Virus record (IMG/VR): IMGVR_UViG_3300034782_000041
Span: 74,407-138,406 of that record
Strand: one strand, 5' to 3'
DNA: 64,000 nt
Source: a virus
Positions 6,810-61,727 of this stretch are shown here, in pieces. The translations under genes were made by a program, and so were the position numbers. Below the pieces are notes generated by a model. The model was not told the DNA's origin. It was given only the letters and a program-made list of their open reading frames with translations, and did no database searches. The first letter of the stretch is position 1. Every line of letters begins with the position of its first letter.

Positions 6810-7035
6810 GAGTCTCCGTCCTCGGTTGTGTAGGGCTCAAACGTCGGGCGCCTCGGTGCCGCCCCGACGCAGGCCATACTAGCATCGCGGCCTGACAAGA
6901 AACTGTCCGTTGTCATACGCGACGAAGAAATCGCGGCCGCGATCAGCTAACCGCGCGACACGTGGTGGAACCTATTGTTTGTCCGTGAGTGAGGAGAAGA
7001 AACGCAGAAGTCAGGCGTGAAGCCTTGACAACGGT

Positions 7036-7680
7036 CTAGTGACCGCTGCGCCTCACGGCGATAACTGCGATGATCGTTCCGAGGAGTGCAACTCCGCCGA
7101 TGACTCCGGCGATGGCAAGTACTGGAGTCTTCTTGGGCGTGGGTGTCATTGATGTCATCGCAGCTGCTGCTGATTGCGTTGGCGTCGTCGCCTGTGTTGA
7201 TGGCGCAGACGTCGTGGCTTGTGCAGCAGGCGTGGTCATGGGAGAGGCCCCGGACTGTGCCGGTGCAGTCGTTGTCGGGGTGAGTACAGTAGGTGACGGT
7301 TGAGACGTGGAAGGTGTCGCGACGGGGCGAGGCACCAGGAGGGCCTTCAACTGAGTAGTCAACTCAGTTGCAGTCTTGGCTGCGACTTCCTTGCTAAAGG
7401 CTCCCCGAGCTTGCCCGAGCGCACCGGTTGCGGCAGGTACCCGTGCGGCGATCTCCCGGATGAGCGTTACGGTGTTGACACCGATGAGTCCATCGACAGC
7501 GATGGGCGCCAACCCGAAGAGTGCGGCGACCTGGTTGGCAGCCTGTTGCAGATCCTGAAACAGCCTATGCGTGTTCGTGGCCCCATCGACTCCGTAACAG
7601 AGCTTCGCGCCGCATTTGTAGTTCGTGCCCTCGATGAGCACCGCGCCGAGGCCTTGTGAGTTGTGTGCGTAGAAGAGCAT
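7036..7680 (-). CDS. membrane-anchored protein with Thr/Pro/Ala-rich linker and C-terminal TM helix
   Basis: PIAVDGLIGVNTVTLIREIA segment resembles a peptidoglycan-binding domain; long T/P/A/S linker; C-terminal VLAIAGVIGGVALLGTIIAVIAV. Confidence 0.5.
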   Translation of the reverse strand: MLFYAHNSQGLGAVLIEGTNYKCGAKLCYGVDGATNTHRLFQDLQQAANQVAALFGLAPIAVDGLIGVNTVTLIREIAARVPAATGALGQARGAFSKEVAAKTATELTTQLKALLVPRPVATPSTSQPSPTVLTPTTTAPAQSGASPMTTPAAQATTSAPSTQATTPTQSAAAAMTSMTPTPKKTPVLAIAGVIGGVALLGTIIAVIAVRRSGH

Positions 7681-11371: not shown

Positions 11372-11910
11372 CCCTCTATCCGTCCAGTGGTCGCCGCGGC
11401 ACGTGTTTTCTTTCGCGGCTGCTTCCGTGCCTGCTTCTGCCACGCTTGCCACTGCTTCTTCGGTGCGTTGATGTGTTTTGCGCAGAGGTGGTGAAAACGA
11501 GGTCCCTTGCTTTGTGCGTTGCATCCTGGCTTGATGCAACGACGCGGGCCCCGGCGCGGGCCACGACGTGAGCCTTGCGGTTTCTGCTTCTCTTCGGGCT
11601 TGCACGCACGTGCGTGAATAGAAGCAGCTCGCTGGGTCTTGAATGTCGTGCCGCAGTGAACACACGCCCAACCGTTTGGTGTCTCTACGATGCCTCGTAT
11701 CGAAGTGATGGCTGCTGTGGCATTGACGTCAGTGACTATCTTCTGAGCTTGCTTCGGCGTGATCGGCCCGGCATCTACTTTGACCGTGTAGGCGAGAGCG
11801 TTGACGACTTCGGTGCGTACGAGGTGATGGAGTTGCGGCCGCAAACGTTCGATCAGCTGCTCGACGCGACGATCAACTTCGGCATCCAGTGTTTGCATGA
11901 GCTTCTTCAT
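11368..11910 (-). CDS. hypothetical protein with Cys/His zinc-finger-like segment and basic tail
   Basis: WACVHCGTTF…HARAC and CIKPGCN…HHLCAKH. Confidence 0.5.
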   Translation of the reverse strand: MKKLMQTLDAEVDRRVEQLIERLRPQLHHLVRTEVVNALAYTVKVDAGPITPKQAQKIVTDVNATAAITSIRGIVETPNGWACVHCGTTFKTQRAASIHARACKPEEKQKPQGSRRGPRRGPRRCIKPGCNAQSKGPRFHHLCAKHINAPKKQWQAWQKQARKQPRKKTRAAATTGRIEG

Positions 11911-13583: not shown

Positions 13584-14145
13584 GTCTAGCCATCGAGCCA
13601 GCATTCTGGGACCACCTGGTGTTGATCTACGGCGTCTCGATTGGGTAGCCATCGAGCTAGCATTCCGGGACACCCGTCCTCGCGTTCTCTGTCACAGTTA
13701 TCGCACGCAGTGTAGTCTGGTTCGTTGTTGTAGCCGCACTCGACACATTTCCAAATGAGTCCAGCACGGATCATGGCTGATTCAATTGCATCGGATTCAT
13801 CATCTTCGAGCTAGCATTCCGGGTCGCGACTTTGAGACCGCGCGCCAGGTTGTCGCTCGCGTCTCGATTGGGTAGCCATCGAGCTAGCATTCTGGGTTCG
13901 ATCTCGACGCGTCGAAAGACGAGCTAGGCTGTCTCGATTGGGTAGCCTCGATCCCAAATCCGACGTCTCGATTGAGTAGTCATCGAGCTAGCATTCCGGG
14001 TCTTCGTTGGTTGCGGGGCCGAGGTCTCGATTGAATAGTCATCGAGCTAGCATGGTTGTCGTCGCCCTTGGTGCTCAAGTCTCGATTGAATAGCCATCGA
14101 GCTAGCATGATTGTCGTCGCCCTTGGTGCTCAAGTCTCGATTGAA
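13584..14145 (-). CRISPR. degenerate distal block of CRISPR array (truncated and variant copies of the 36-bp repeat; includes a 55-bp tandem duplication)
   Basis: Full copies at 13634-13669, 13861-13896, 13965-14000; truncated copies at 13584-13610, 13808-13823, 13931-13947, 14024-14053, 14079-14108, 14134-14145; intervening segments 23-37 bp plus one 138-bp segment; units 14024-14078 and 14079-14133 are a tandem duplicate. Confidence 0.55.
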
Positions 14146-14185
14146 AAGGGATGCTCCCCTGACCGACAAGGAAGCATTCAAGCTG

Positions 14186-14518
14186 CTACATGCCAGTCGC
14201 CTCGACGACCTTCTTGATGATCTTTTCGAGTTTGGCGTACTTCTTCGTGAAGGCGGCTTCGTACCCGGAATGGTAGATACCGACGTCCGGCGTCAGGTAC
14301 GCCTGTAGCACGCTTTTGAGTACGATCTCGGTGTTCGGATTGGCGTACTGCAACTCGTAAATAGCCTCCCGAGCCACATTGATCACCACCTCCGCCTTTT
14401 CCCGCTCATATGGTTGTAGGAGGTCTTCCAGAGTCTCGATCAATCGGTCGGCGGCAGACACCAACGTTTCACGGACCTGTGGATCCGTTCTTTTCTTCGG
14501 TCTCGGTTTCATTCCCAT
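14186..14518 (-). CDS. hypothetical 110-aa protein encoded inside the CRISPR array (between the two repeat blocks)
   Basis: ORF with GGAGGA RBS 6 nt upstream of ATG (minus strand …acggaggactgaaATG); flanked on both sides by array repeats. Confidence 0.5.
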   Translation of the reverse strand: MGMKPRPKKRTDPQVRETLVSAADRLIETLEDLLQPYEREKAEVVINVAREAIYELQYANPNTEIVLKSVLQAYLTPDVGIYHSGYEAAFTKKYAKLEKIIKKVVEATGM

Positions 14519-14550
14519 TTCAGTCCTCCGTGTCTACATCCTGGCGTGGC

Positions 14551-14951
14551 GTCTTGATTGAATAGCCATCGAGCTAGCATTCCGGGGGGCCGGCCACGGA
14601 AAAACACCGCTGGCCCCGTTTTGTAGTCTCGATTGGGTAGCCATCGAGCTAGCATTCCGGGTCTGGGGCGCGAACGCCTTCGGGCTCGGCTCGATACGGT
14701 CTCGATTGAGTAGCCATCGAGCTAGCATTCCGGGGAGCACCCCGAGGAGCGAACTGGCTTCCGCTACGCGTCTCGATTGAGTAGCCATCGAGCTAGCATT
14801 TCGGGTGGCAGAAAGCTTTGGCCGCGGCAATTGCACGCGAGCTGTCTCGATTGAGTAGTCATCGAGCTGGCATTCCGGGGCGGCTGCGCCAGTGGTTTGA
14901 AACGCACACCCGACTGTCTCGATTGAGTAGCCATCGAGCTAGCATTCCGGG
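14551..14951 (-). CRISPR. CRISPR array, six 36-bp direct repeats (consensus plus-strand GTCTCGATTGAGTAGCCATCGAGCTAGCATTCCGGG) with five unique 35-39 bp spacers
   Basis: Repeats at 14551, 14626, 14699, 14770, 14844, 14916; spacers 39/37/35/38/36 bp; each repeat contains inverted repeat CTCGAT…ATCGAG (6-bp stem, 9-nt loop); variation among copies is confined to the loop. Confidence 0.8.
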
Positions 14952-16522
14952 GGCACCTCGTTTTTCTTGTGCCGTTTCGCGAACCTGGAGGTCGTTTTTC
15001 GAGCGGTAGGTTTTTTCCATTTGCCGGCTTGGTAGAGGGCCCACATGTTTCGGGTGCTTATGTCGTCGCAGTCTCGTTGCGTACCACACCCCTCGCAACG
15101 AAGCATGCGTTGTCCGTTCACGGGAGTGATTGTGCCACAATCGGGGCAACGCGCACTCGTGTGCTTCGCTTCTACGATCCGCATTCCATCGGCGCCAAAC
15201 ACTTCCCGTAGCACCTCCACTGTTTCTCCTGGTGCCGCATGTTGTCCTTGCCGTTGAGCCTTCTGAGGCAGCCCGTGTTCCTCCTTGATCTTCTTGTGCC
15301 CTGTATTCTTGACGATGACAGCCGCGTATTGACAGCGTAGCTCACGCACCCATTCACGCAGCGCTGCGCGACGTCCGGTTCGGCTACGCCGCCAGCAACC
15401 GCACTCATACCGCCAGAGATGCATTTCGCGTGCAACCCACGCGTCTTGATCCGCGGTGAGTACTCCTAGACTACGTAGTCTTCGTACAGCCTTTTGGCAG
15501 GATTTCGTCTTACCGACTACAGGCCAGCACGCCCGTACTTCGTTGAGGCGCTTGTCACGGTGTGAGTGGATCTTCTCCGCACGGTCAGCGCGTGCCGTCC
15601 AACTGACTGGCATGCGTAGCTCACTCACGTGACCGGCCGCATCACGCGCGTAGCCCAATCGCCAGGAGCCGTCAGGCATCTTGCGCCAGCTGACGTCTAC
15701 CGCAACGACGCCTTCCTCGGCCGCGTCCGTCCTTGGGTCAGCATCCTTGCAAGTGAACGCGACCGACCAAACCTGCTGATCGGCATTGTAACGCCGCCGC
15801 ACATGGACATGTGTGATTTGTCCAGACAGCTCGCGGTGCTTTTCTATGCGGATCGGGGTGCAGAAAATGGGTGTAGCCCCATTGCTGCCGATCCTAATTT
15901 CTACCGTGTGCCGTCCAAGTCCGTTACGTGTACGTCTTCCTGTCCGTGCGTCTGGCGCTTTGTGAGTCTGTACGTACCGATGAGGATCTCTTCCGGGTTG
16001 AATTTGGACGGCCGCGACGTCTCCTTTGCGCCACGACCGGAATTTCACCGGGCGGAGCAGAGACGTGTGTTGCCAGGCTGCCGAGAAGGCCTGTTCGATC
16101 ACGTTGTAGGTTCCCCAGTAGAGTCCTTTCGCCGCCCATGTAGTTCGTAATGGACGAACGTCGAGTAGCGGTATAGCACGGGTAGCTGCCCACACTGCAT
16201 TCCAGTGCGCGCGGCAAGCCGCACACTTACAGTTGTCGTGCTCTGCCGGGTGCGCCTCGCGGTGCTTTTCGCACTCAGCGCAGTCGCAGTCGTACTTCTC
16301 GTGGGGAGGCGACGTCTTCGCCCATGCATCTTGGCACTTCTCGCACTGACATCTACCTCGGTGCGGTGGTGGTGGCGGAGATTCGCCGCCCCATCCGATT
16401 TGGCGCCGCTTGTTCTCCGCTTCAACGAGCGCGTTGTAGTACTGACGGCCTAGCCTCATCTGCCTGAGCAAGTTCGGATCTTGGCTAGGGCGGGCTCCAT
16501 ACTTGTAAACGCGTGCTGGCAT
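14939..16522 (-). CDS. cas12: TnpB/Cas12-family RuvC nuclease-like protein, candidate single-effector of a type V CRISPR-Cas system
   Basis: N-terminus VYKYGARPSQDPNLLRQMRLGRQYYNAL matches the TnpB/Cas12 WED start; GVVAVDVSW (RuvC-I-like); GMRIVEAKHTSARCPDCG…RCEGCGTQRDCDDISTRNM (zinc finger plus RuvC-III RD motif); probable start 16522 with AAGGAG RBS; 3' end overlaps the first array repeat. Confidence 0.8.
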   Translation of the reverse strand: MPARVYKYGARPSQDPNLLRQMRLGRQYYNALVEAENKRRQIGWGGESPPPPPHRGRCQCEKCQDAWAKTSPPHEKYDCDCAECEKHREAHPAEHDNCKCAACRAHWNAVWAATRAIPLLDVRPLRTTWAAKGLYWGTYNVIEQAFSAAWQHTSLLRPVKFRSWRKGDVAAVQIQPGRDPHRYVQTHKAPDARTGRRTRNGLGRHTVEIRIGSNGATPIFCTPIRIEKHRELSGQITHVHVRRRYNADQQVWSVAFTCKDADPRTDAAEEGVVAVDVSWRKMPDGSWRLGYARDAAGHVSELRMPVSWTARADRAEKIHSHRDKRLNEVRACWPVVGKTKSCQKAVRRLRSLGVLTADQDAWVAREMHLWRYECGCWRRSRTGRRAALREWVRELRCQYAAVIVKNTGHKKIKEEHGLPQKAQRQGQHAAPGETVEVLREVFGADGMRIVEAKHTSARCPDCGTITPVNGQRMLRCEGCGTQRDCDDISTRNMWALYQAGKWKKPTARKTTSRFAKRHKKNEVPPEC

Positions 16523-16556
16523 ACATGCTCCTTTGCTTGGCTCCTCGGAGCCCCAT

Positions 16557-16886
16557 TCAACCAACGTTGCAAGCAGCTAGAGCTGCAATGATCTTCTCCG
16601 ACATGCCTTGTAGGCCTTTACCGTATTCGCGGATTCCACGCACCGTGAGTAGAATATCGCGGAGTTGATCCTGGTCATCGCTGACACGCTGAATGAGGTC
16701 AGCTACCAGGTCGAGAAGGCCAGCTTGCTCTTCTGGCGACAGCGGTTGCAGGATGCCCTCACGAAGCTGTGTGGCCACGATACGGGCCATCTCAGGGCGC
16801 ATTGTCGAGAGGGCTGCCGCAGCACCGCCAGGAACCGTGTATTCGTGTGCGGGATCATCTGTCATCAGCGTTTTCCTCCTCCTCAT
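16557..16886 (-). CDS. hypothetical protein
   Basis: 109-aa ORF directly upstream of the cas12-like gene; no Cas1/Cas2 features. Confidence 0.45.
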   Translation of the reverse strand: MRRRKTLMTDDPAHEYTVPGGAAAALSTMRPEMARIVATQLREGILQPLSPEEQAGLLDLVADLIQRVSDDQDQLRDILLTVRGIREYGKGLQGMSEKIIAALAACNVG

Positions 16887-16910: not shown

Positions 16911-17735
16911 TCAAGTCAGGTTGGACGTTTCCGACGCTGATTGAACGATCTCCACTGCGTTGGCCTCGCTCAGATCGAATTCGTCCTTGAGCTTCTTGAT
17001 CAAGCCGGCACGGAACAACGCAGTACGTTCGACGTTCGCCTCCCTGTACTTACCGATGACCTGCAACACAGGCGCCCAGTCTTGGATGAGACCGTCCAGC
17101 GCTTGCGTAACACGGTCAGCGGACGCGATTTTGCGCAGCTCGGCAACGTTGTCACAGACATCGTTGATCACGTCAGCGATTTGTTTTGGCGCGTTGGCGT
17201 CGAGTACGCTGTGGACGATGGCAGTACTGGCCAGCTTTCCTATGCTCGGTACCTCGGCGCTGCTCTGCGCAGCTCCTGCACTGTATATGTTGCGGATACG
17301 TTTGAGCCGATCAATACGGGCCGCGAGATCGCTGAGCCCTGTAGAGGCTGCATCTGCGGTACCAGCTTCAGCTTCAGCTTCAGCTTCAGCTTCAGCTTCA
17401 GCTTCAGCTTCAGCTTCATCTGTGTCATCCTCGTCCGTAATCTCACGAACCGCGAGCATCACGTCACCAAAACGAACCGTGTCGCCGACTTTGACGGCTG
17501 CTTTGTTGATCTGCTTCTCGTTGATGAACGTACCTTGCACGCTACCCAGATCGACTAGGTGGACAATGCCTCCAGGCTCGCACTCGAACACCGCGTGCAT
17601 CCGACTGACTGAAGGATGGTTGAGCTTCAACCCCGAGCGTTTCATTTTTCCAATCTTGATCACACTGCCGCGGCAGGTGTGCACCTCACCTTGCGTGCCG
17701 TCACTGTTGATCTCAGCCAATACGATTGCCCTCAT
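16911..17735 (-). CDS. FHA (forkhead-associated) domain protein with (EA)7 repeat
   Basis: N-terminal GSVIKIG…SRMHAVFE…LVDLGSVQGTFINEKQI…GDTVRFG fits the FHA fold; (GCTTCA)n encodes EAEAEAEAEAEAEA. Confidence 0.7.
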   Translation of the reverse strand: MRAIVLAEINSDGTQGEVHTCRGSVIKIGKMKRSGLKLNHPSVSRMHAVFECEPGGIVHLVDLGSVQGTFINEKQINKAAVKVGDTVRFGDVMLAVREITDEDDTDEAEAEAEAEAEAEAEAEAGTADAASTGLSDLAARIDRLKRIRNIYSAGAAQSSAEVPSIGKLASTAIVHSVLDANAPKQIADVINDVCDNVAELRKIASADRVTQALDGLIQDWAPVLQVIGKYREANVERTALFRAGLIKKLKDEFDLSEANAVEIVQSASETSNLT

Positions 17736-52070: not shown

Positions 52071-52406
52071 TCAGTCTTCAGAAGGTAGAAACTTGTTCAG
52101 CTCGTCGGTGATCTCTTGCTTCGGCAGTAGGCCTACGAGATGCGCGACCACTTCCTTTTTGCGGAAGATCAACAACGTTGGGACTGCCTGGATTCTGTAG
52201 CGGTCAGTGATCTTCTCGCACTGATCCACATCGACAGCTGCGACCTGGGCTCGCCCTTCGTACTCGCGCGCCAGCTTCTCGATGATGGGTTTGATCTGCT
52301 TGCACGGACCACACCATCGCGCAGTGAAGTCCACGAGTGTGGGCAGCTCTGAATCGAGGAAGGCGTCGAACGTGTCGTCGGTCAGGTTGGTTATCTGTTT
52401 ACTCAT
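52071..52406 (-). CDS. trxA: thioredoxin
   Basis: 111 aa with WCGPCK active site and thioredoxin fold layout. Confidence 0.85.
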   Translation of the reverse strand: MSKQITNLTDDTFDAFLDSELPTLVDFTARWCGPCKQIKPIIEKLAREYEGRAQVAAVDVDQCEKITDRYRIQAVPTLLIFRKKEVVAHLVGLLPKQEITDELNKFLPSED

Positions 52407-52468
52407 AGCTACCCTCTCAAAAAAAAGTTTAGCGGTCCGTTGATCATGCGCTAGCCGCAGGAATTCGG

Positions 52469-53176
52469 CTATGCTTCCAGTTCGGCCTCAGTTTGCGCGA
52501 ACAGCTTATCGATATCGAGCCGCGCTTTTGTCTCAGCCCACAATTTCACACGCTCCCTGATGTAGTCACGGGCGGTGCGGTCGTAGGCATCCCGGATTTC
52601 CGCCCGGGCCTTCACAGCGATCCGTTCGGTAAGGTCTGAGAAGTCTATTGTAGCAAGTGCCTTATCCACTACGGGTGCGGCAACCTTCTCGATGCGCGCC
52701 CGGATCGCCATCATGACAGTGTTGTTCCGATTGCAGCTCTCCAACCGGACACGGTTGAAGCCATCGTCCTGGATACCGAGCACCAAATCGATGATAGCTG
52801 AGAGGCGATTTTTGACGCAGCCCATGACCGTCGCGTCGATAGCACCATCGCTCAGCAACTTCGAGGCAACCAGCACTGCTCGGTCGTTGAGCATCTGTAC
52901 AAGTTGGCCCACGCTTACGGACGGGACCAGCTTGGGCAACTCCGGCTCCAGTTTCTGGCCGTGAGGATTTCGCCTCTCCGGGATGGGATTAAAGTGCGCG
53001 TAGGCAAGCGTCACGATGGCTTGCGAGTCCTTGGTCATCACCGCGGCCGCTACAGCGTCTCGGAAGTCAGGATCGCCATCTATCCGCGAGAGCACGCGCA
53101 ACGCAACGTCCGCGTGTTCAATGCCCGCTTCGAGCACAGCACGTTTCAGGTCTTCGTGTGCGATGTCCTCTCTCAT
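52469..53176 (-). CDS. hypothetical protein
   Basis: 235-aa ORF. Confidence 0.5.
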   Translation of the reverse strand: MREDIAHEDLKRAVLEAGIEHADVALRVLSRIDGDPDFRDAVAAAVMTKDSQAIVTLAYAHFNPIPERRNPHGQKLEPELPKLVPSVSVGQLVQMLNDRAVLVASKLLSDGAIDATVMGCVKNRLSAIIDLVLGIQDDGFNRVRLESCNRNNTVMMAIRARIEKVAAPVVDKALATIDFSDLTERIAVKARAEIRDAYDRTARDYIRERVKLWAETKARLDIDKLFAQTEAELEA

Positions 53177-53851: not shown

Positions 53852-54841
53852 TTAGAACCTGGATTTATTCTTCGGCGCGATTGCAATCGCTATCGCGTAA
53901 GCTGCGTCCATCAGCTCATCTAAGGGTTCGAGCAAGAAATCCACGCCGCTGACAGCACGGTCGAGCCACAGCTTGCGTAAGCCTGTCGTTACGTGATCGA
54001 GACCAACCTCGCTAGTGCGAAGTAGCGGCTGGGGTACACGTCGAAGTAGCGGCTGCAACTCGTTCAGCACCCCCCATTGATGAAAATCCTCGGGGACGTT
54101 TCGCGCGCCGTTGAGTTTCATCCCAGTGAAGTCGGAGTACGCACCAACCGACAGGCGTGAAAGAAAGTCGAAGTCTACGTTGGAGAGGTCTGCATTCGCG
54201 AAGATTGCATTCCCCAGTACTGTGTGGTGCAGCTTGGCGCCACACAGTGAGGCGCCGGTGAAGTCTGCTTCCTTGATTACTGCATGACTCAGGTCTGCGT
54301 TGTCCAAGCACGCACCGGAGAAATCGACTTCGTTCAGCTCCGCGTAACGCAGATCCGCATACTCAAACGACGTGAAGGCGAAACGTGACTTATGCGTGAA
54401 TTTCGCCTTGCGTAGCTTGGCCTTGTCGAATATTGCACCGAACGCGTTGCAGTTAATGAATGTTGCACCACGTAGATCCGCGCTGCTGAAGTCGGTGTCA
54501 GGGAGATTCGTCGTACCCAACTCAGCGGCCTGCATTTTCGCGCTGACGAAAAGCGCGCTGTCGAGATTTGCGTTGTCTAGATTCACGGCACTAAGATTCG
54601 CACCTGCGAAGTCGCACGCGGCCAAGTTTGAGTGTCGTAAGTCGAGTCCCGCTAGCTCGAAGCCAGCGTAGTTACGTCGCTGGAAATTGGCTTGTTGTAG
54701 ATGAACCCGTGCCAAAGCTGCCCAAGACTGACGTGGTGTCAGGTTCTCGAACGTGAGTTTACGTCCATCGACAAGCACGACTTCGGGGTCGTTGGAGTCT
54801 ACGTCACCGGAGTCCGCAGCCAGCTTTGGTGAATCAGTCAT
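53852..54841 (-). CDS. pentapeptide-repeat protein
   Basis: ~35 consecutive A(D/N)LxX pentapeptides (…ANLSAVNLDNANLDSALF…ADLRGATF…ADLRYAELNEVDFSGACLDNADLSHAV…). Confidence 0.75.
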   Translation of the reverse strand: MTDSPKLAADSGDVDSNDPEVVLVDGRKLTFENLTPRQSWAALARVHLQQANFQRRNYAGFELAGLDLRHSNLAACDFAGANLSAVNLDNANLDSALFVSAKMQAAELGTTNLPDTDFSSADLRGATFINCNAFGAIFDKAKLRKAKFTHKSRFAFTSFEYADLRYAELNEVDFSGACLDNADLSHAVIKEADFTGASLCGAKLHHTVLGNAIFANADLSNVDFDFLSRLSVGAYSDFTGMKLNGARNVPEDFHQWGVLNELQPLLRRVPQPLLRTSEVGLDHVTTGLRKLWLDRAVSGVDFLLEPLDELMDAAYAIAIAIAPKNKSRF

Positions 54842-59397: not shown

Positions 59398-60630
59398 TCA
59401 GATTTCTATCTCGATGACATCAGCGAACTCAGGAATTTCTTTTCTGCTCGCGTAACCGATCAAGGCGACGGTCAGCTTACGGCAGTTGCGCGGCCGTTCA
59501 GGCCACGTCTCACACGGCATACCGTCTGTCAGATGGATCGCGTAGTCGAACTTCTTGCTGGCGCTCTCGATGGCCGCGTACGCAGGCGTGTATAGCGTTC
59601 CGCCGCGACCGATCAGAGTCTTGGCGAGAGCAGCTCGTCGTGTGCCGGGACGGATCCAGTCGGCGAAGTGCACCTCCGCGTCGTGTGTGACCAGAAATAT
59701 GGCCACACCCGTCGCACGGCTGATTGCTTCCACCTCGCTGAGTGCTTGTTCGAGGTCTTCGTCAGAGACAGAACCGCTGGTGTCTACCGCCACAGCGACG
59801 AGTGCCTTGGACGTGATTCCACCTGGGAGAATGAAGTCGCCCGCGAACGACCGCCGGTTGCGTCGCTGCCAACTAACGTCGTCGTTGCCGCGTTCAGCGA
59901 TTGCACGTGCACATGCGTTGCGTAGCACCGCAGTCCACGCCACTTTGGATGGTGGAACGCGGAGCACGCGTGCAAGCAGATCTCCAGAGCAGTCGCCTGC
60001 CGAGCGCGCGTTCTGCTCAGCGCTGTGAGCAAGCTGCCGCCAGGTCCGTGCTGACTCAGCTGTGGAGGGAAACGCCGCGCCGTCTTCTGGTGCTTCACCC
60101 TCGGCGCCATCGTCATCACCATCGCCATCACCACCCTGAGGTGGAAGCACGCCACAACCACCGGTTGCTCCGGGCATCTTGCCCAGCGAGGCTTGACCGT
60201 CATCGCCTGGCTGTTCTTCCTCGACCTCGTAGAGTTCTTCTGTTGTGTACTCGTTATGCGCCGGGTCGGTGGGAAGTAACCCCATGGGCGGCATTTCCAG
60301 CCCTATTTGCACGAGACCGAAGTTGATTGCGCGATCCGCGGCACGATTCCAGCGGAACGGCTTGCGGTTCATTCGCCGCCCAAAGTGAAACAGCAGCAGA
60401 TGCATGATCTCGTGCGCCAGAACGAAGGTAAGCTGCTTGTCCGAGAGCTGATCGCAGAAACTCGGATTGAGGTACACGCATCCACGTACGTCAGCACAAG
60501 CAGTCTGGATGTGGATGGACACACGCAGGTAGATCTTCGCACCGGGTAGAGCAAAGAATGGGTGTCGCCAACCAAGGCCCAACAAAAGCCCTCGGGCACG
60601 CTGGATGAGCTGTCTGGTCGCTGATGTCAT
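59398..60630 (-). CDS. putative metallopeptidase (HExxH) plus VWA-like domain protein (DUF2201-type partner of MoxR ATPases)
   Basis: N-terminal …LTFVLAHEIMHLLLFHF…; acidic Gly/Asp linker; C-terminal LVAVAVDTSGSVSDEDL VWA/MIDAS-like. Confidence 0.7.
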   Translation of the reverse strand: MTSATRQLIQRARGLLLGLGWRHPFFALPGAKIYLRVSIHIQTACADVRGCVYLNPSFCDQLSDKQLTFVLAHEIMHLLLFHFGRRMNRKPFRWNRAADRAINFGLVQIGLEMPPMGLLPTDPAHNEYTTEELYEVEEEQPGDDGQASLGKMPGATGGCGVLPPQGGDGDGDDDGAEGEAPEDGAAFPSTAESARTWRQLAHSAEQNARSAGDCSGDLLARVLRVPPSKVAWTAVLRNACARAIAERGNDDVSWQRRNRRSFAGDFILPGGITSKALVAVAVDTSGSVSDEDLEQALSEVEAISRATGVAIFLVTHDAEVHFADWIRPGTRRAALAKTLIGRGGTLYTPAYAAIESASKKFDYAIHLTDGMPCETWPERPRNCRKLTVALIGYASRKEIPEFADVIEIEI

Positions 60631-61727
60631 GCTGCCCCACGCTGCACTCTTGCCAGCAGTTGGATTTGGGCTTTGCGCCCGACGGTGGCGAACTTAGAGG
60701 CCTGCGGCACCTTGTTCATTAGGAACCGTCCGCAGGCAGCTCCAATCTCTTTCCGCAGCCGGCCCGCGTAGGTCCACGCGGCCCAGACATCGGTCTGCGC
60801 GACTCGGGCCAGGAGACCCAGGGCAGCGATCTGCTGATCGAGCGATTCGGGCAGCCGTGCCTTGGTTGGGTTGGCCGCGATCTCATCGATGGATGGCAGG
60901 TGCAGACGGAGCTTGCGAATTGCCAGGTACGCGCCAGCAGCGGACGGTCCTACGGCACCTGTCAGGAGCGCGTAGCCAACGTCATCCTCTTTACCGCCAT
61001 GCGCTGCCAGGCAGGAGAGGCCGATCTCCCAGCCGCGAGGGGATGCCCACGGCTCGCCCTGATCAACGCTTGCACGCGGCGGATCATAAACGAGCAGATC
61101 AGTAGCGTGGGAAAGCGTCGCGGCGAAGTCAGCGAACTCCGCAACGCATGCGGCCTGGAAGGCGTCCTCGTCGAGCACTACGGGAGAAGCGTGAACCGCC
61201 TCACCGTTGAAGTAGGACTGCACTTCCGCGAATGAGGGCTGATAGCGAAGCAGCACGATCCGGTTGATGAATGCCGCCGACAGCTCGATGCCGCCCGGTG
61301 CCTGTTCCGGCGGGTTGCACGCGAGTACTACGGGGCTGCCCGGGTGCAACGGCGTGCCGCCTGCGTTGCGTTCCATCGCAACACGTAGCATCGGGCCCTC
61401 GACCGATTTCGGCATCGCGGTCGCCTCGTCGATGAATAAGACACCCGCAGCGTCCACGACGGCCCGAATCTCGGGAAACAGCTCGCGCAGCACCCGACCC
61501 GACTGTAGATCGCGGTATGGCAGCCCCGCGACGTCTGTCGGGTCCATGTTGGACGCGATCAGATCGTGGCAAGGCAACCCAATGGCGGCCGCAGCATCAC
61601 GCACGAGGGCCGTTTTGCCAACGCCTGGCGAACCTAGCAGCAGTGCGGTTCGCCTCGCGCGAAGGGCAGCGGCCACCGCGGCGGCTGCTTGTGTGTAGTT
61701 CAACACGGGAATGAGATACTTGGACAA
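60627..61727 (-). CDS. MoxR-like AAA+ ATPase
   Basis: LLLGSPGVGKT Walker A; VLFIDEA Walker B; TTG start 6 nt after a GGAGGA RBS that follows GCCCCTCGGGGC. Confidence 0.8.
   Translation of the reverse strand: MSKYLIPVLNYTQAAAAVAAALRARRTALLLGSPGVGKTALVRDAAAAIGLPCHDLIASNMDPTDVAGLPYRDLQSGRVLRELFPEIRAVVDAAGVLFIDEATAMPKSVEGPMLRVAMERNAGGTPLHPGSPVVLACNPPEQAPGGIELSAAFINRIVLLRYQPSFAEVQSYFNGEAVHASPVVLDEDAFQAACVAEFADFAATLSHATDLLVYDPPRASVDQGEPWASPRGWEIGLSCLAAHGGKEDDVGYALLTGAVGPSAAGAYLAIRKLRLHLPSIDEIAANPTKARLPESLDQQIAALGLLARVAQTDVWAAWTYAGRLRKEIGAACGRFLMNKVPQASKFATVGRKAQIQLLARVQRGAA

Follow-up and report, generated by a model that had tools for sequence, protein, structure and literature searches.

A phage-borne type V-M (Cas12m) locus without adaptation genes and its compact effector clade with lysine at the RuvC-II position

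Introduction

Does a phage gene whose product resembles TnpB and Cas12, and whose 3′ end runs into an array of direct repeats, encode an RNA-guided nuclease of a new kind, or does it belong to a known lineage and act on DNA in another way? The question is raised by a locus in a 64,000-nucleotide (nt) stretch of virus DNA (IMG/VR record IMGVR_UViG_3300034782_000041, positions 74,407 to 138,406; hereafter, the window), where a minus-strand gene for a protein of 527 amino acids (aa) is followed directly by a CRISPR array. An earlier note on this DNA, made from the sequence alone, had described the locus as a TnpB-derived type V CRISPR-Cas system on a phage-like element, had called the protein a nuclease, and had suggested a novel type V subtype or an evolutionary intermediate. 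We consider it likely that the window carries a phage-borne locus of the Cas12m lineage, devoid of an adaptation module, whose effector belongs to a compact clade and works by binding DNA rather than by cleaving it. The clade itself is a distinct, compact variant of Cas12m that is apparently restricted to phages.

Assignment of the effector to the Cas12m lineage

Judged from sequence profiles, the predicted fold, the repeat, and the scaffold of the putative CRISPR RNA (crRNA), all of which concur, the locus is of type V-M (Cas12m, formerly V-U1). The PADLOC model Cas12u1 (V-U1) matches residues 131–495 of the window protein at 1.1e-35, while Pfam sees only the C-terminal zinc ribbon (PF07282). 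A family-only profile built from 22 close relatives aligns end to end in the PDB with Cas12m 23vw (7e-45), deposited under the title “CRISPR-associated DNA-binding protein Cas12m”, and with UnCas12m4a (6e-14); once three distant members are added, it reaches Cas12m2 at 1e-56 and 8pm4, a Cas12m complex that we take to be GoCas12m, at 9e-47. The AlphaFold model of the protein has a predicted local distance difference test (pLDDT) score of 84.5 overall, and when it is compared with the PDB by Foldseek, the top four matches are Cas12m2 (8hhl, 7e-21) and the 8pm4 complex (4e-17), with TnpB, Cas12f, Fanzor, Cas12o, Cas12p, CasPhi, and CasLambda ranking below. The likeness to the Cas12m proteins (MmCas12m2, GoCas12m, MsCas12m, PDB 23vw, and 23vu) thus extends to full-length profile and fold, as well as to the WED-REC1-RuvC-TNB layout with its zinc ribbon and to a His-Arg pair that is invariant and lies at the crRNA 3′ end. 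With these scores, the suggestion of a novel type V subtype does not hold, whereas the broader description of a TnpB-derived type V locus on a phage-like element is supported.

When 1.8 billion representatives were searched exhaustively with a profile, 1,566 matches fell below 1e-30. About 13–16 representatives scoring 460–800 bits make up the close clade; two intermediates lie near 310 bits, and then follows a continuum of Cas12m-like proteins of 550–690 aa. In this search the close clade grades into a Cas12m-like superfamily of some 1,500 clusters.

The minus-strand open reading frame (ORF), which has the coordinates given in the earlier note, starts with ATG at 16522 and is preceded by a ribosome-binding site (Table 1); homologues share this Met start, and a longer version from TTG at 16564 is therefore unnecessary. 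Motifs quoted previously are present, namely GVVAVD276VSW, the zinc ribbon C459/C462/C476/C479, and RDCD486DISTRN.

Other miniature type V effectors have been considered. Cas12f, CasPhi (Cas12j), CasLambda (Cas12l), Cas12o, and Cas12p-TrxA share a small size and the RuvC/TNB core, and several of them are phage-encoded, but their scores are much weaker (Foldseek 1e-10 to 1e-4, profiles 0.002–0.009). Cas12f requires a trans-activating crRNA (tracrRNA) and dimerises. Assignment to Cas12f (V-F) was rejected because only the zinc-ribbon and RuvC-III segment is matched (E 0.005–0.009; in Pfam, PF07282 alone) and because the fold agrees at about 1e-10, as compared with 1e-21 for Cas12m. The window does contain a thioredoxin gene with a WCGPC motif (52071–52487, minus strand); a partnership of the Cas12p-TrxA type was rejected, since this gene lies 37 kb from the CRISPR locus and is not found near the relatives, and since the fold resembles that of Cas12p only weakly.

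A compact clade with a D-K-D triad

A database search with the window protein yielded about 39 relatives, all metagenomic. The compact clade comprises about 40 members of 472–531 aa, all on phage-like contigs; they average 500 aa, which is about 90 aa less than the 592 aa of the other Cas12m-like relatives. In all 39 full-length members the catalytic triad reads D276-K405-D486 (D-K-D), whereas among 138 other relatives RuvC-II has Glu in 118 (86%), the full D-E-D triad is found in 106, and D-K-D recurs only in three sporadic long proteins. This lysine had been overlooked in the earlier note. Four alignments of hidden Markov models concordantly place K405 where Cas12m 23vw and TnpB have Glu and where Cas12m2 has the first Asp of “VDD”, and in the AlphaFold model K405 ends the predicted strand 401–406, which together suggest that it occupies the active-site RuvC-II position. 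A tendency to altered RuvC triads is common to Cas12m, and published clade triads are HEK/HQK, HDD, DED/NED, and DED/DND/NED (PMC10442227); D-K-D matches none of them.

The clade has other signatures. The REC2 coiled coil, which in Cas12m2 spans residues ~53–120 and is also present in GoCas12m, is absent and replaced by a Pro-rich stretch with a Cys/His motif (PPxPPH...CxCxxCxxHW), in which C100, C103, and H106 are nearly invariant; this region (residues 45–120, with pLDDT of only 53–69) looks like a zinc knuckle, and the CxCxxC unit occurs three times in the window protein and its closest relative. Other Cas12m-like proteins have about 60–90 extra residues at the REC2 region. Whether a REC2 coiled coil should define the Cas12m subtype is a matter of convention. 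The RuvC-III motif is DRDxxSTRN in the clade as opposed to DQDxNAxRN in other Cas12m, and a conserved basic C-terminal tail is found in the clade as one more difference. The clade is monophyletic in a neighbour-joining tree, a rough one that was not rooted with TnpB, with a 521-aa D-E-R protein as its sister.

Might the protein nevertheless be an active RNA-guided DNA nuclease, with a RuvC site that cuts by altered chemistry at K405 or with a relocated acidic residue? The strict conservation of D276 and D486 together with the zinc ribbon and the RuvC fold would be in keeping with this, and rearranged, presumably active RuvC-II sites have been described in TnpB lineages (PMC10691335). A conceivable substitute is E433 (in APGE), which is conserved in 95% of the clade; however, it is found in D-E-D relatives too, the beta-5 position is not conserved, and no clade-specific acidic residue that might replace the lost Glu was seen in the clade alignment. 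A positively charged lysine in place of the canonical Glu in every clade member argues against cutting, and so does a perfect self-match tolerated in one relative (L006, see below). Moreover, characterised Cas12m proteins do not cleave double-stranded DNA even when their triad is D-E-D (PMC11013384). Taken together, these points make a cutting enzyme quite unlikely and the label “nuclease” doubtful.

The CRISPR array and the crRNA scaffold

As had been noted earlier, six near-identical repeats of 36 nt, separated by unique spacers of 35–39 nt, follow the gene. On the minus strand they occupy positions 14916–14951, 14844–14879, 14770–14805, 14699–14734, 14626–14661, and 14551–14586, deviate from the consensus CCCGGAATGCTAGCTCGATGGCTACTCAATCGAGAC by 0–2 mismatches, and enclose spacers of 36, 38, 35, 37, and 39 nt. 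The previously noted degenerate block beyond them was also found: five full repeats (14079–14114, 14024–14059, 13965–14000, 13861–13896, and 13634–13669), all with intact 3′ handles, and partial copies down to 13587; its short spacers (19 and 23 nt) include a duplicated one. The 24-nt 3′ handle of the repeat occurs in 11 copies in the window, all of them here (shuffled expectation 0.00), and the base composition of the locus equals that of the surrounding DNA. The two short ORFs that interrupt the repeats (110 aa and 62 aa) have no relatives in the related loci fetched and no significant family matches.

Table 1. Coordinates of the features at the effector-array locus (positions in the window).
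Feature	Position	Strand	Remarks
Shine-Dalgarno AAGGAG	16528–16533	-	5 nt upstream of ATG; read directly
cas12m-like effector gene, 527 aa, compact D-K-D clade	14939–16522	-	PADLOC, family profile, Foldseek
Pro-rich and Cys/His-rich segment, residues 45–120, three CxCxxC units	16163–16390	-	Alignment; occupies the place of the REC2 coiled coil in Cas12m
D276 codon, RuvC-I aspartate in VAVDVSWR	15695–15697	-	Clade-invariant
K405 codon, Lys at the RuvC-II Glu position (AVIVK405N)	15308–15310	-	39/39 clade members
CCCC zinc ribbon (TNB domain), C459/C462/C476/C479	15086–15148	-	Pfam PF07282; four Cys invariant
D486 codon, RuvC-III aspartate in D-x-D-x-x-S-T-R-N	15065–15067	-	Invariant in clade
Basic C-terminal tail (KPTARKTTSRFAKRHK...)	14942–15025	-	R508, K509, H518 clade-invariant; predicted disordered
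CRISPR array 1: six 36-nt repeats, five spacers	14551–14951	-	Repeat scan; hairpin covariation
110-aa ORF separating the repeat blocks	14186–14518	-	No family match; not conserved in related loci
Broken-up second repeat block	13587–14148	-	Five full repeats and partial copies
62-aa ORF with CxxC...CxxC zinc-ribbon motif, inside the second block	13586–13774	-	Reads into a repeat

The effector stop codon TAG forms nt 11–13 of the first repeat, so that the last 13 nt of the gene lie within it, as stated earlier, and this arrangement is conserved across the clade: in 13 of the 15 loci examined, 4–28 nt of the ORF's 3′ end lie within the first repeat, and in the remaining two this repeat begins 7 nt past the stop. 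Since the stop falls at varying places of the repeat and in varying reading frames, it is the abutment that is conserved and not a peptide. It also follows that there is no leader, and the DNA coding for the basic C-terminal tail occupies the place expected of one. In MsCas12m and in distant viral Cas12m-like loci, by contrast, the gene and the array are separated by 150–220 nt.

The repeat bears its own hairpin, as the earlier note had pointed out. Covariation was assessed in 12 repeats from the family and distant relatives against 500 shuffles. The 6-bp stem is paired in 97% of cells, with compensatory changes in four of its six pairs, and none of the 500 shuffles equalled the observed percentage paired or covariation score, while the counts of pairs or of pair types were unremarkable (reached in 166 and 71 of 500 shuffles); control registers with a slid partner gave 43% paired or less. 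A second helix of 3 bp, between the 5′ segment and the loop, is paired in 44 of 48 cells as against at most 31 in shifted registers, with C-G to G-C swaps in four repeats in the stem-anchored register. A G facing the penultimate A closes the stem, and the last base of the repeat, C, is invariant, as is the terminal GAC as a whole. These features recall the crRNA of Cas12m2, which has a G·A pair, a 6-bp helix, and C(-1), with the A upstream flipped out (PMC10442227), although the loop has 9 nt here and 8 nt there. The 36-nt repeat of MsCas12m, from a plasmid of Allomeiothermus silvanus (GTAGCAATGCCTAGCTCAGGGGCTTGAAGACTGAGAC), is visibly homologous to that of the window and has the same stem, pseudoknot, and terminal GAC. 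On the protein side, H229-R230 is invariant in the clade and, on the reading of the alignment, would be the counterpart of H269/R270 of Cas12m2, which read C(-1).

A conserved and covarying hairpin is consistent with a tracr-independent crRNA. No long anti-repeat was found near the locus, the sole complementary stretch being 14 nt with 93% complementarity at 14263–14276, and Rfam gave no match. The 14-nt stretch lies in the 110-aa ORF and complements the 5′ part of the repeat (ACCCGGAATGGTAG vs. CTAGCATTCCGGGT); pairing with repeats of one and the same transcript would be possible, and by a rough estimate ~0.03 such matches would be expected by chance.

Array turnover in related loci

The repeat is found at the end of the gene in all 15 family loci examined, with a full array in 13, and comparison of these arrays indicates that they behave as genuine CRISPR arrays. 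One case is a metagenome contig from the Joint Genome Institute (JGI), L040, which has the same repeat and an effector 62% identical to the window protein. Its six gene-proximal spacers all differ from those of the window, whereas at its distal end stands a spacer that differs from window spacer 2 by only a 2-nt indel and one mismatch, with the same variant repeat after it. New proximal spacers combined with a shared distal one are the pattern expected of gene-proximal gain. Two loci with an identical effector, P0014, carry 21 (L002) and 30 (L003) repeats and differ in the first spacer and in one internal block; two others with the identical effector P0026 (L044 and L045) have 24 and 5 repeats, the shorter array being a rearranged subset of the longer one. 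Evidently, recombination between repeats adds to array change beside acquisition.

In the distal half of the L040 array (2382–2795), jumbled repeats stand 3–21 nt apart next to a 138-nt stretch with repeat fragments. This resembles the degenerate block of the window, and distal-end decay seems typical of these arrays.

The degenerate distal block of the window, with its duplicated short spacers and inserted ORFs, could also be read as a sign of a minisatellite unrelated to CRISPR, or of a decayed remnant without function. The same may be said of the absence of any spacer target and of the clade member L005, beside an integrase, where six repeats (6913–7185) are only 8–14 nt apart with the repeat defined as 36 nt; such gaps would be too short for guides if a heteroduplex of ~17 bp is needed, as in Cas12m2. 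On the other hand, the earlier note had held that identical “spacers” in related genomes would speak for a minisatellite, and what was found in L040 is the same repeat with different spacers and a single shared distal one. In addition, the hairpin covaries across the family, the gene is linked to the repeat in 15 of 15 loci, and the effector ORF is intact and constrained, with a mean identity of 47% in the family and many invariant positions. A minisatellite or dead remnant is, thus, very improbable.

In two clade members (L042:6130–6230 and L043:2450–2550), a single repeat over the stop codon is followed by unique sequence and the next gene, like an omegaRNA or “solo guide”. These loci bring the clade close in appearance to the TnpB-omegaRNA modules of IS200/IS605 transposons (e.g., ISDra2), with which it also shares a RuvC and zinc-ribbon core with TnpB-like fold and C-terminal motifs, a small REC lobe without the REC2 coiled coil, and a guide scaffold that overlaps the 3′ end of the ORF. 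Yet the window and most relatives have multi-spacer arrays of repeated scaffolds whose spacers are exchanged from strain to strain; no transposase was detected beside the gene, which is present in a single copy in the window, and there are no IS ends. Similarity to TnpB is confined to profile positions 340–463, the C-terminal third, at 3e-4, as opposed to full-length similarity to Cas12m, and RuvC-II has Lys. Identification as a transposon module rather than a CRISPR system was therefore rejected, and we regard it as scarcely credible.

Spacer targets and a possible role of self-matches

The earlier note had called for the window spacers to be searched against phage, plasmid, and host databases. 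Such searches found no target: the array gave no protospacer in phage and plasmid databases, except for one 27-nt match at chance level (E 0.1); in IMG/VR none of the five spacers had a match for the 22 nt next to the repeat, and spacer 1 had none in the JGI metagenomes, and spacer 2 none in the GTDB genomes. Imperfect self-matches were likewise absent within the window. For the relatives, the L002 array (21 repeats, 20 spacers) had no target in the phage database.

One spacer in a related phage does match its own DNA. Spacer 2 of L006 (9567–9602) is identical over 36 of 36 nt to positions 11568–11603 of the same contig, ~2 kb downstream, flanked by a stop codon at 11546 and, at 11611, the next called start; against IMG/VR it had no target. 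The 5′ flank of the site is GGGT, which to our knowledge is not a protospacer adjacent motif (PAM) of any Cas12m. Such a match raises the question of whether the system serves mainly as a programmable repressor of genes of the phage or host, controlling, for example, lysogeny or timing, rather than defence or competition. Self-targeting would be harmless with a non-cleaving effector, L042 and L043 retain one repeat with one guide, and several loci lie beside integrases. However, only 1 of ~100 distinct spacers matches its own flanks (up to 10 kb), no window spacer does so in its own 64 kb, the L006 flank fits no PAM that we know of, and the fast-changing arrays of 20–30 spacers resemble immunity or competition more than fixed regulation. 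A mainly regulatory role is accordingly held to be unlikely.

Proposed mechanism

On present evidence, the protein has probably lost a DNA-cutting residue and would bind and silence DNA without cleaving it. This reading relies on the D-K-D triad, on the conserved elements of crRNA handling, and on experiments with Cas12m, in which proteins with D-E-D, H-D-D, or N-D-D triads bind double-stranded DNA without cutting (PMC11013384); the non-cleaving behaviour of Cas12m, D-E-D variants included, has also been described elsewhere (PMC11013384, PMC10442227).

The following sequence of events may be envisaged. The gene and the array would be transcribed as a single minus-strand RNA, as the lack of a gap or leader suggests. 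Each 36-nt repeat would then fold into the 6-bp hairpin with the 3-bp pseudoknot ending in ...GAC that is shown by covariation, and the WED and RuvC domains would grip this scaffold, as the structure of Cas12m2 and the conservation of the His-Arg pair suggest, leaving the spacer downstream of it as the guide. The resulting complex would bind PAM-flanked DNA and block transcription or replication; speculatively, K405 might take the role of a metal ion and touch the displaced strand itself. The effector mRNA could be affected when the first repeat is processed. Probable targets are competing phages and plasmids, or regulated genes of the phage or host. New spacers join at the gene-proximal end, as comparison of arrays shows, with the acquisition machinery presumably provided by a host in trans, and the arrays are reshuffled by repeat recombination as well.

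Several points weigh against this picture. The REC2 coiled coil and an Arg-rich pocket are held important for tight DNA binding by Cas12m2; both are absent here, and the strength of binding is therefore uncertain. The loss of catalysis is deduced from a single substitution, and TnpB lineages with relocated catalytic glutamates exist (PMC10691335). No protospacer is available for any window spacer in the databases searched, and hence no target or PAM. The degenerate state of the distal repeat block may mean that the locus is in part decaying. Finally, simple promoter and terminator scans did no better than on shuffled sequences and are uninformative on expression.

A bolder interpretation would see in the clade a phage-specific, minimal Cas12m near the TnpB-to-Cas12 transition that acts as a heritable, reprogrammable repressor, directed among others at the phage's own genes and autoregulating the effector mRNA, and not as a nuclease-based defence. 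The minimal form is suggested by the missing REC2, the omegaRNA-like overlap of the scaffold, and the single scaffold and guide of some members; repression of its own genes by the L006 self-match; and autoregulation by the stop codon lying within the first processed repeat. We put it forward tentatively, as unlikely in this full form; the earlier idea of an evolutionary intermediate may hold.

Phage context and adaptation genes

The absence of cas1, cas2, and cas4, claimed earlier, was supported among the ORFs tested: Pfam and PADLOC gave no Cas match in the flanking ORFs, and no Cas1 among the 20 largest ORFs of the window, which include all Cas1-sized ones. A putative single crRNA, lack of adaptation genes, and carriage by mobile elements are shared with Cas12m in general. 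The window also looks phage-like, as had been thought, with almost all genes on the minus strand; they include those for ribonucleotide reductase and a tyrosine integrase, for a DUF2201/MoxR pair and an excisionase-like protein, and many whose products match PHROG only. It contains no structural genes or tRNA genes and has no DNA similarity to GenBank phages.

The clade relatives reside on phage-like metagenomic contigs of 10–102 kb, four of which are IMG/VR viral genomes, and several adjoin integrases; in this the clade differs from other Cas12m, since no member was found in 185,579 reference genomes. IMG/VR also holds ~27 more distant Cas12m-like genes (L013–L039; 22–30% identity), whose viral contigs reach 245 kb; in several cases an array lies 150–220 nt downstream. 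Judged from public data, Cas12m carried by phages is thus much more frequent than was suggested by a recent “first report”. V-M systems on prophages have already been noted (PMC11656645), V-U1-like effectors have been seen in viromes (PMC12607003), and a 2026 preprint describes a Cas12m of 610 aa with D-E-D in a myxophage (bioRxiv 10.64898/2026.09.14.751636), so that carriage of V-M by phages is not new in itself. The latter protein, MvCas12m of myxophage MV-1, is close in setting: it is a phage-encoded V-M effector beside an array, without cas1/cas2/cas4 or spacer targets found, as here, and without a tracrRNA, as is predicted here. It differs in having ordinary length and the canonical triad, while the window protein is of 527 aa, D-K-D, and part of the compact clade.

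A few neighbouring genes deserve mention. An FHA-domain gene (16911–17735, minus strand) contains an (EA)9 dipeptide repeat at 17364–17417, a hexanucleotide microsatellite; its product is 47% identical to one in L001 that is encoded on the opposite side of cas12m, and the cas12m-array module is therefore placed differently in related phages. A DUF2201 metallopeptidase/VWA gene with an adjacent gene for a MoxR-like AAA ATPase lies at 59398–61727 (minus strand), and a DUF2201 gene is present in a P0014-carrying phage as well (L002:1751–3016). A pentapeptide-repeat protein of 329 aa is encoded at 53852–54841 (minus strand); proteins of this type can mimic DNA, and this one is a possible candidate for an anti-defence factor.

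Significance

Base and epigenome editing already make use of Cas12m as a compact platform that is nuclease-free; MmCas12m2 has 596 aa and an engineered version 581 aa. If DNA binding by the clade proved to be good, its natural members of 472–531 aa, with the same simple crRNA, would be smaller still by about 10–20%.

It has been argued that the REC2 coiled coil allowed descendants of TnpB to engage in adaptive immunity. A clade that lacks REC2 and yet possesses long arrays that turn over offers a natural test of whether REC2 is needed in array-based targeting. How spacers are acquired is a further question, posed by arrays that have neither leader nor cas1. For type V-M as a whole, the clade adds a discrete, apparently phage-restricted lineage to its use as a tool in the competition between mobile elements.

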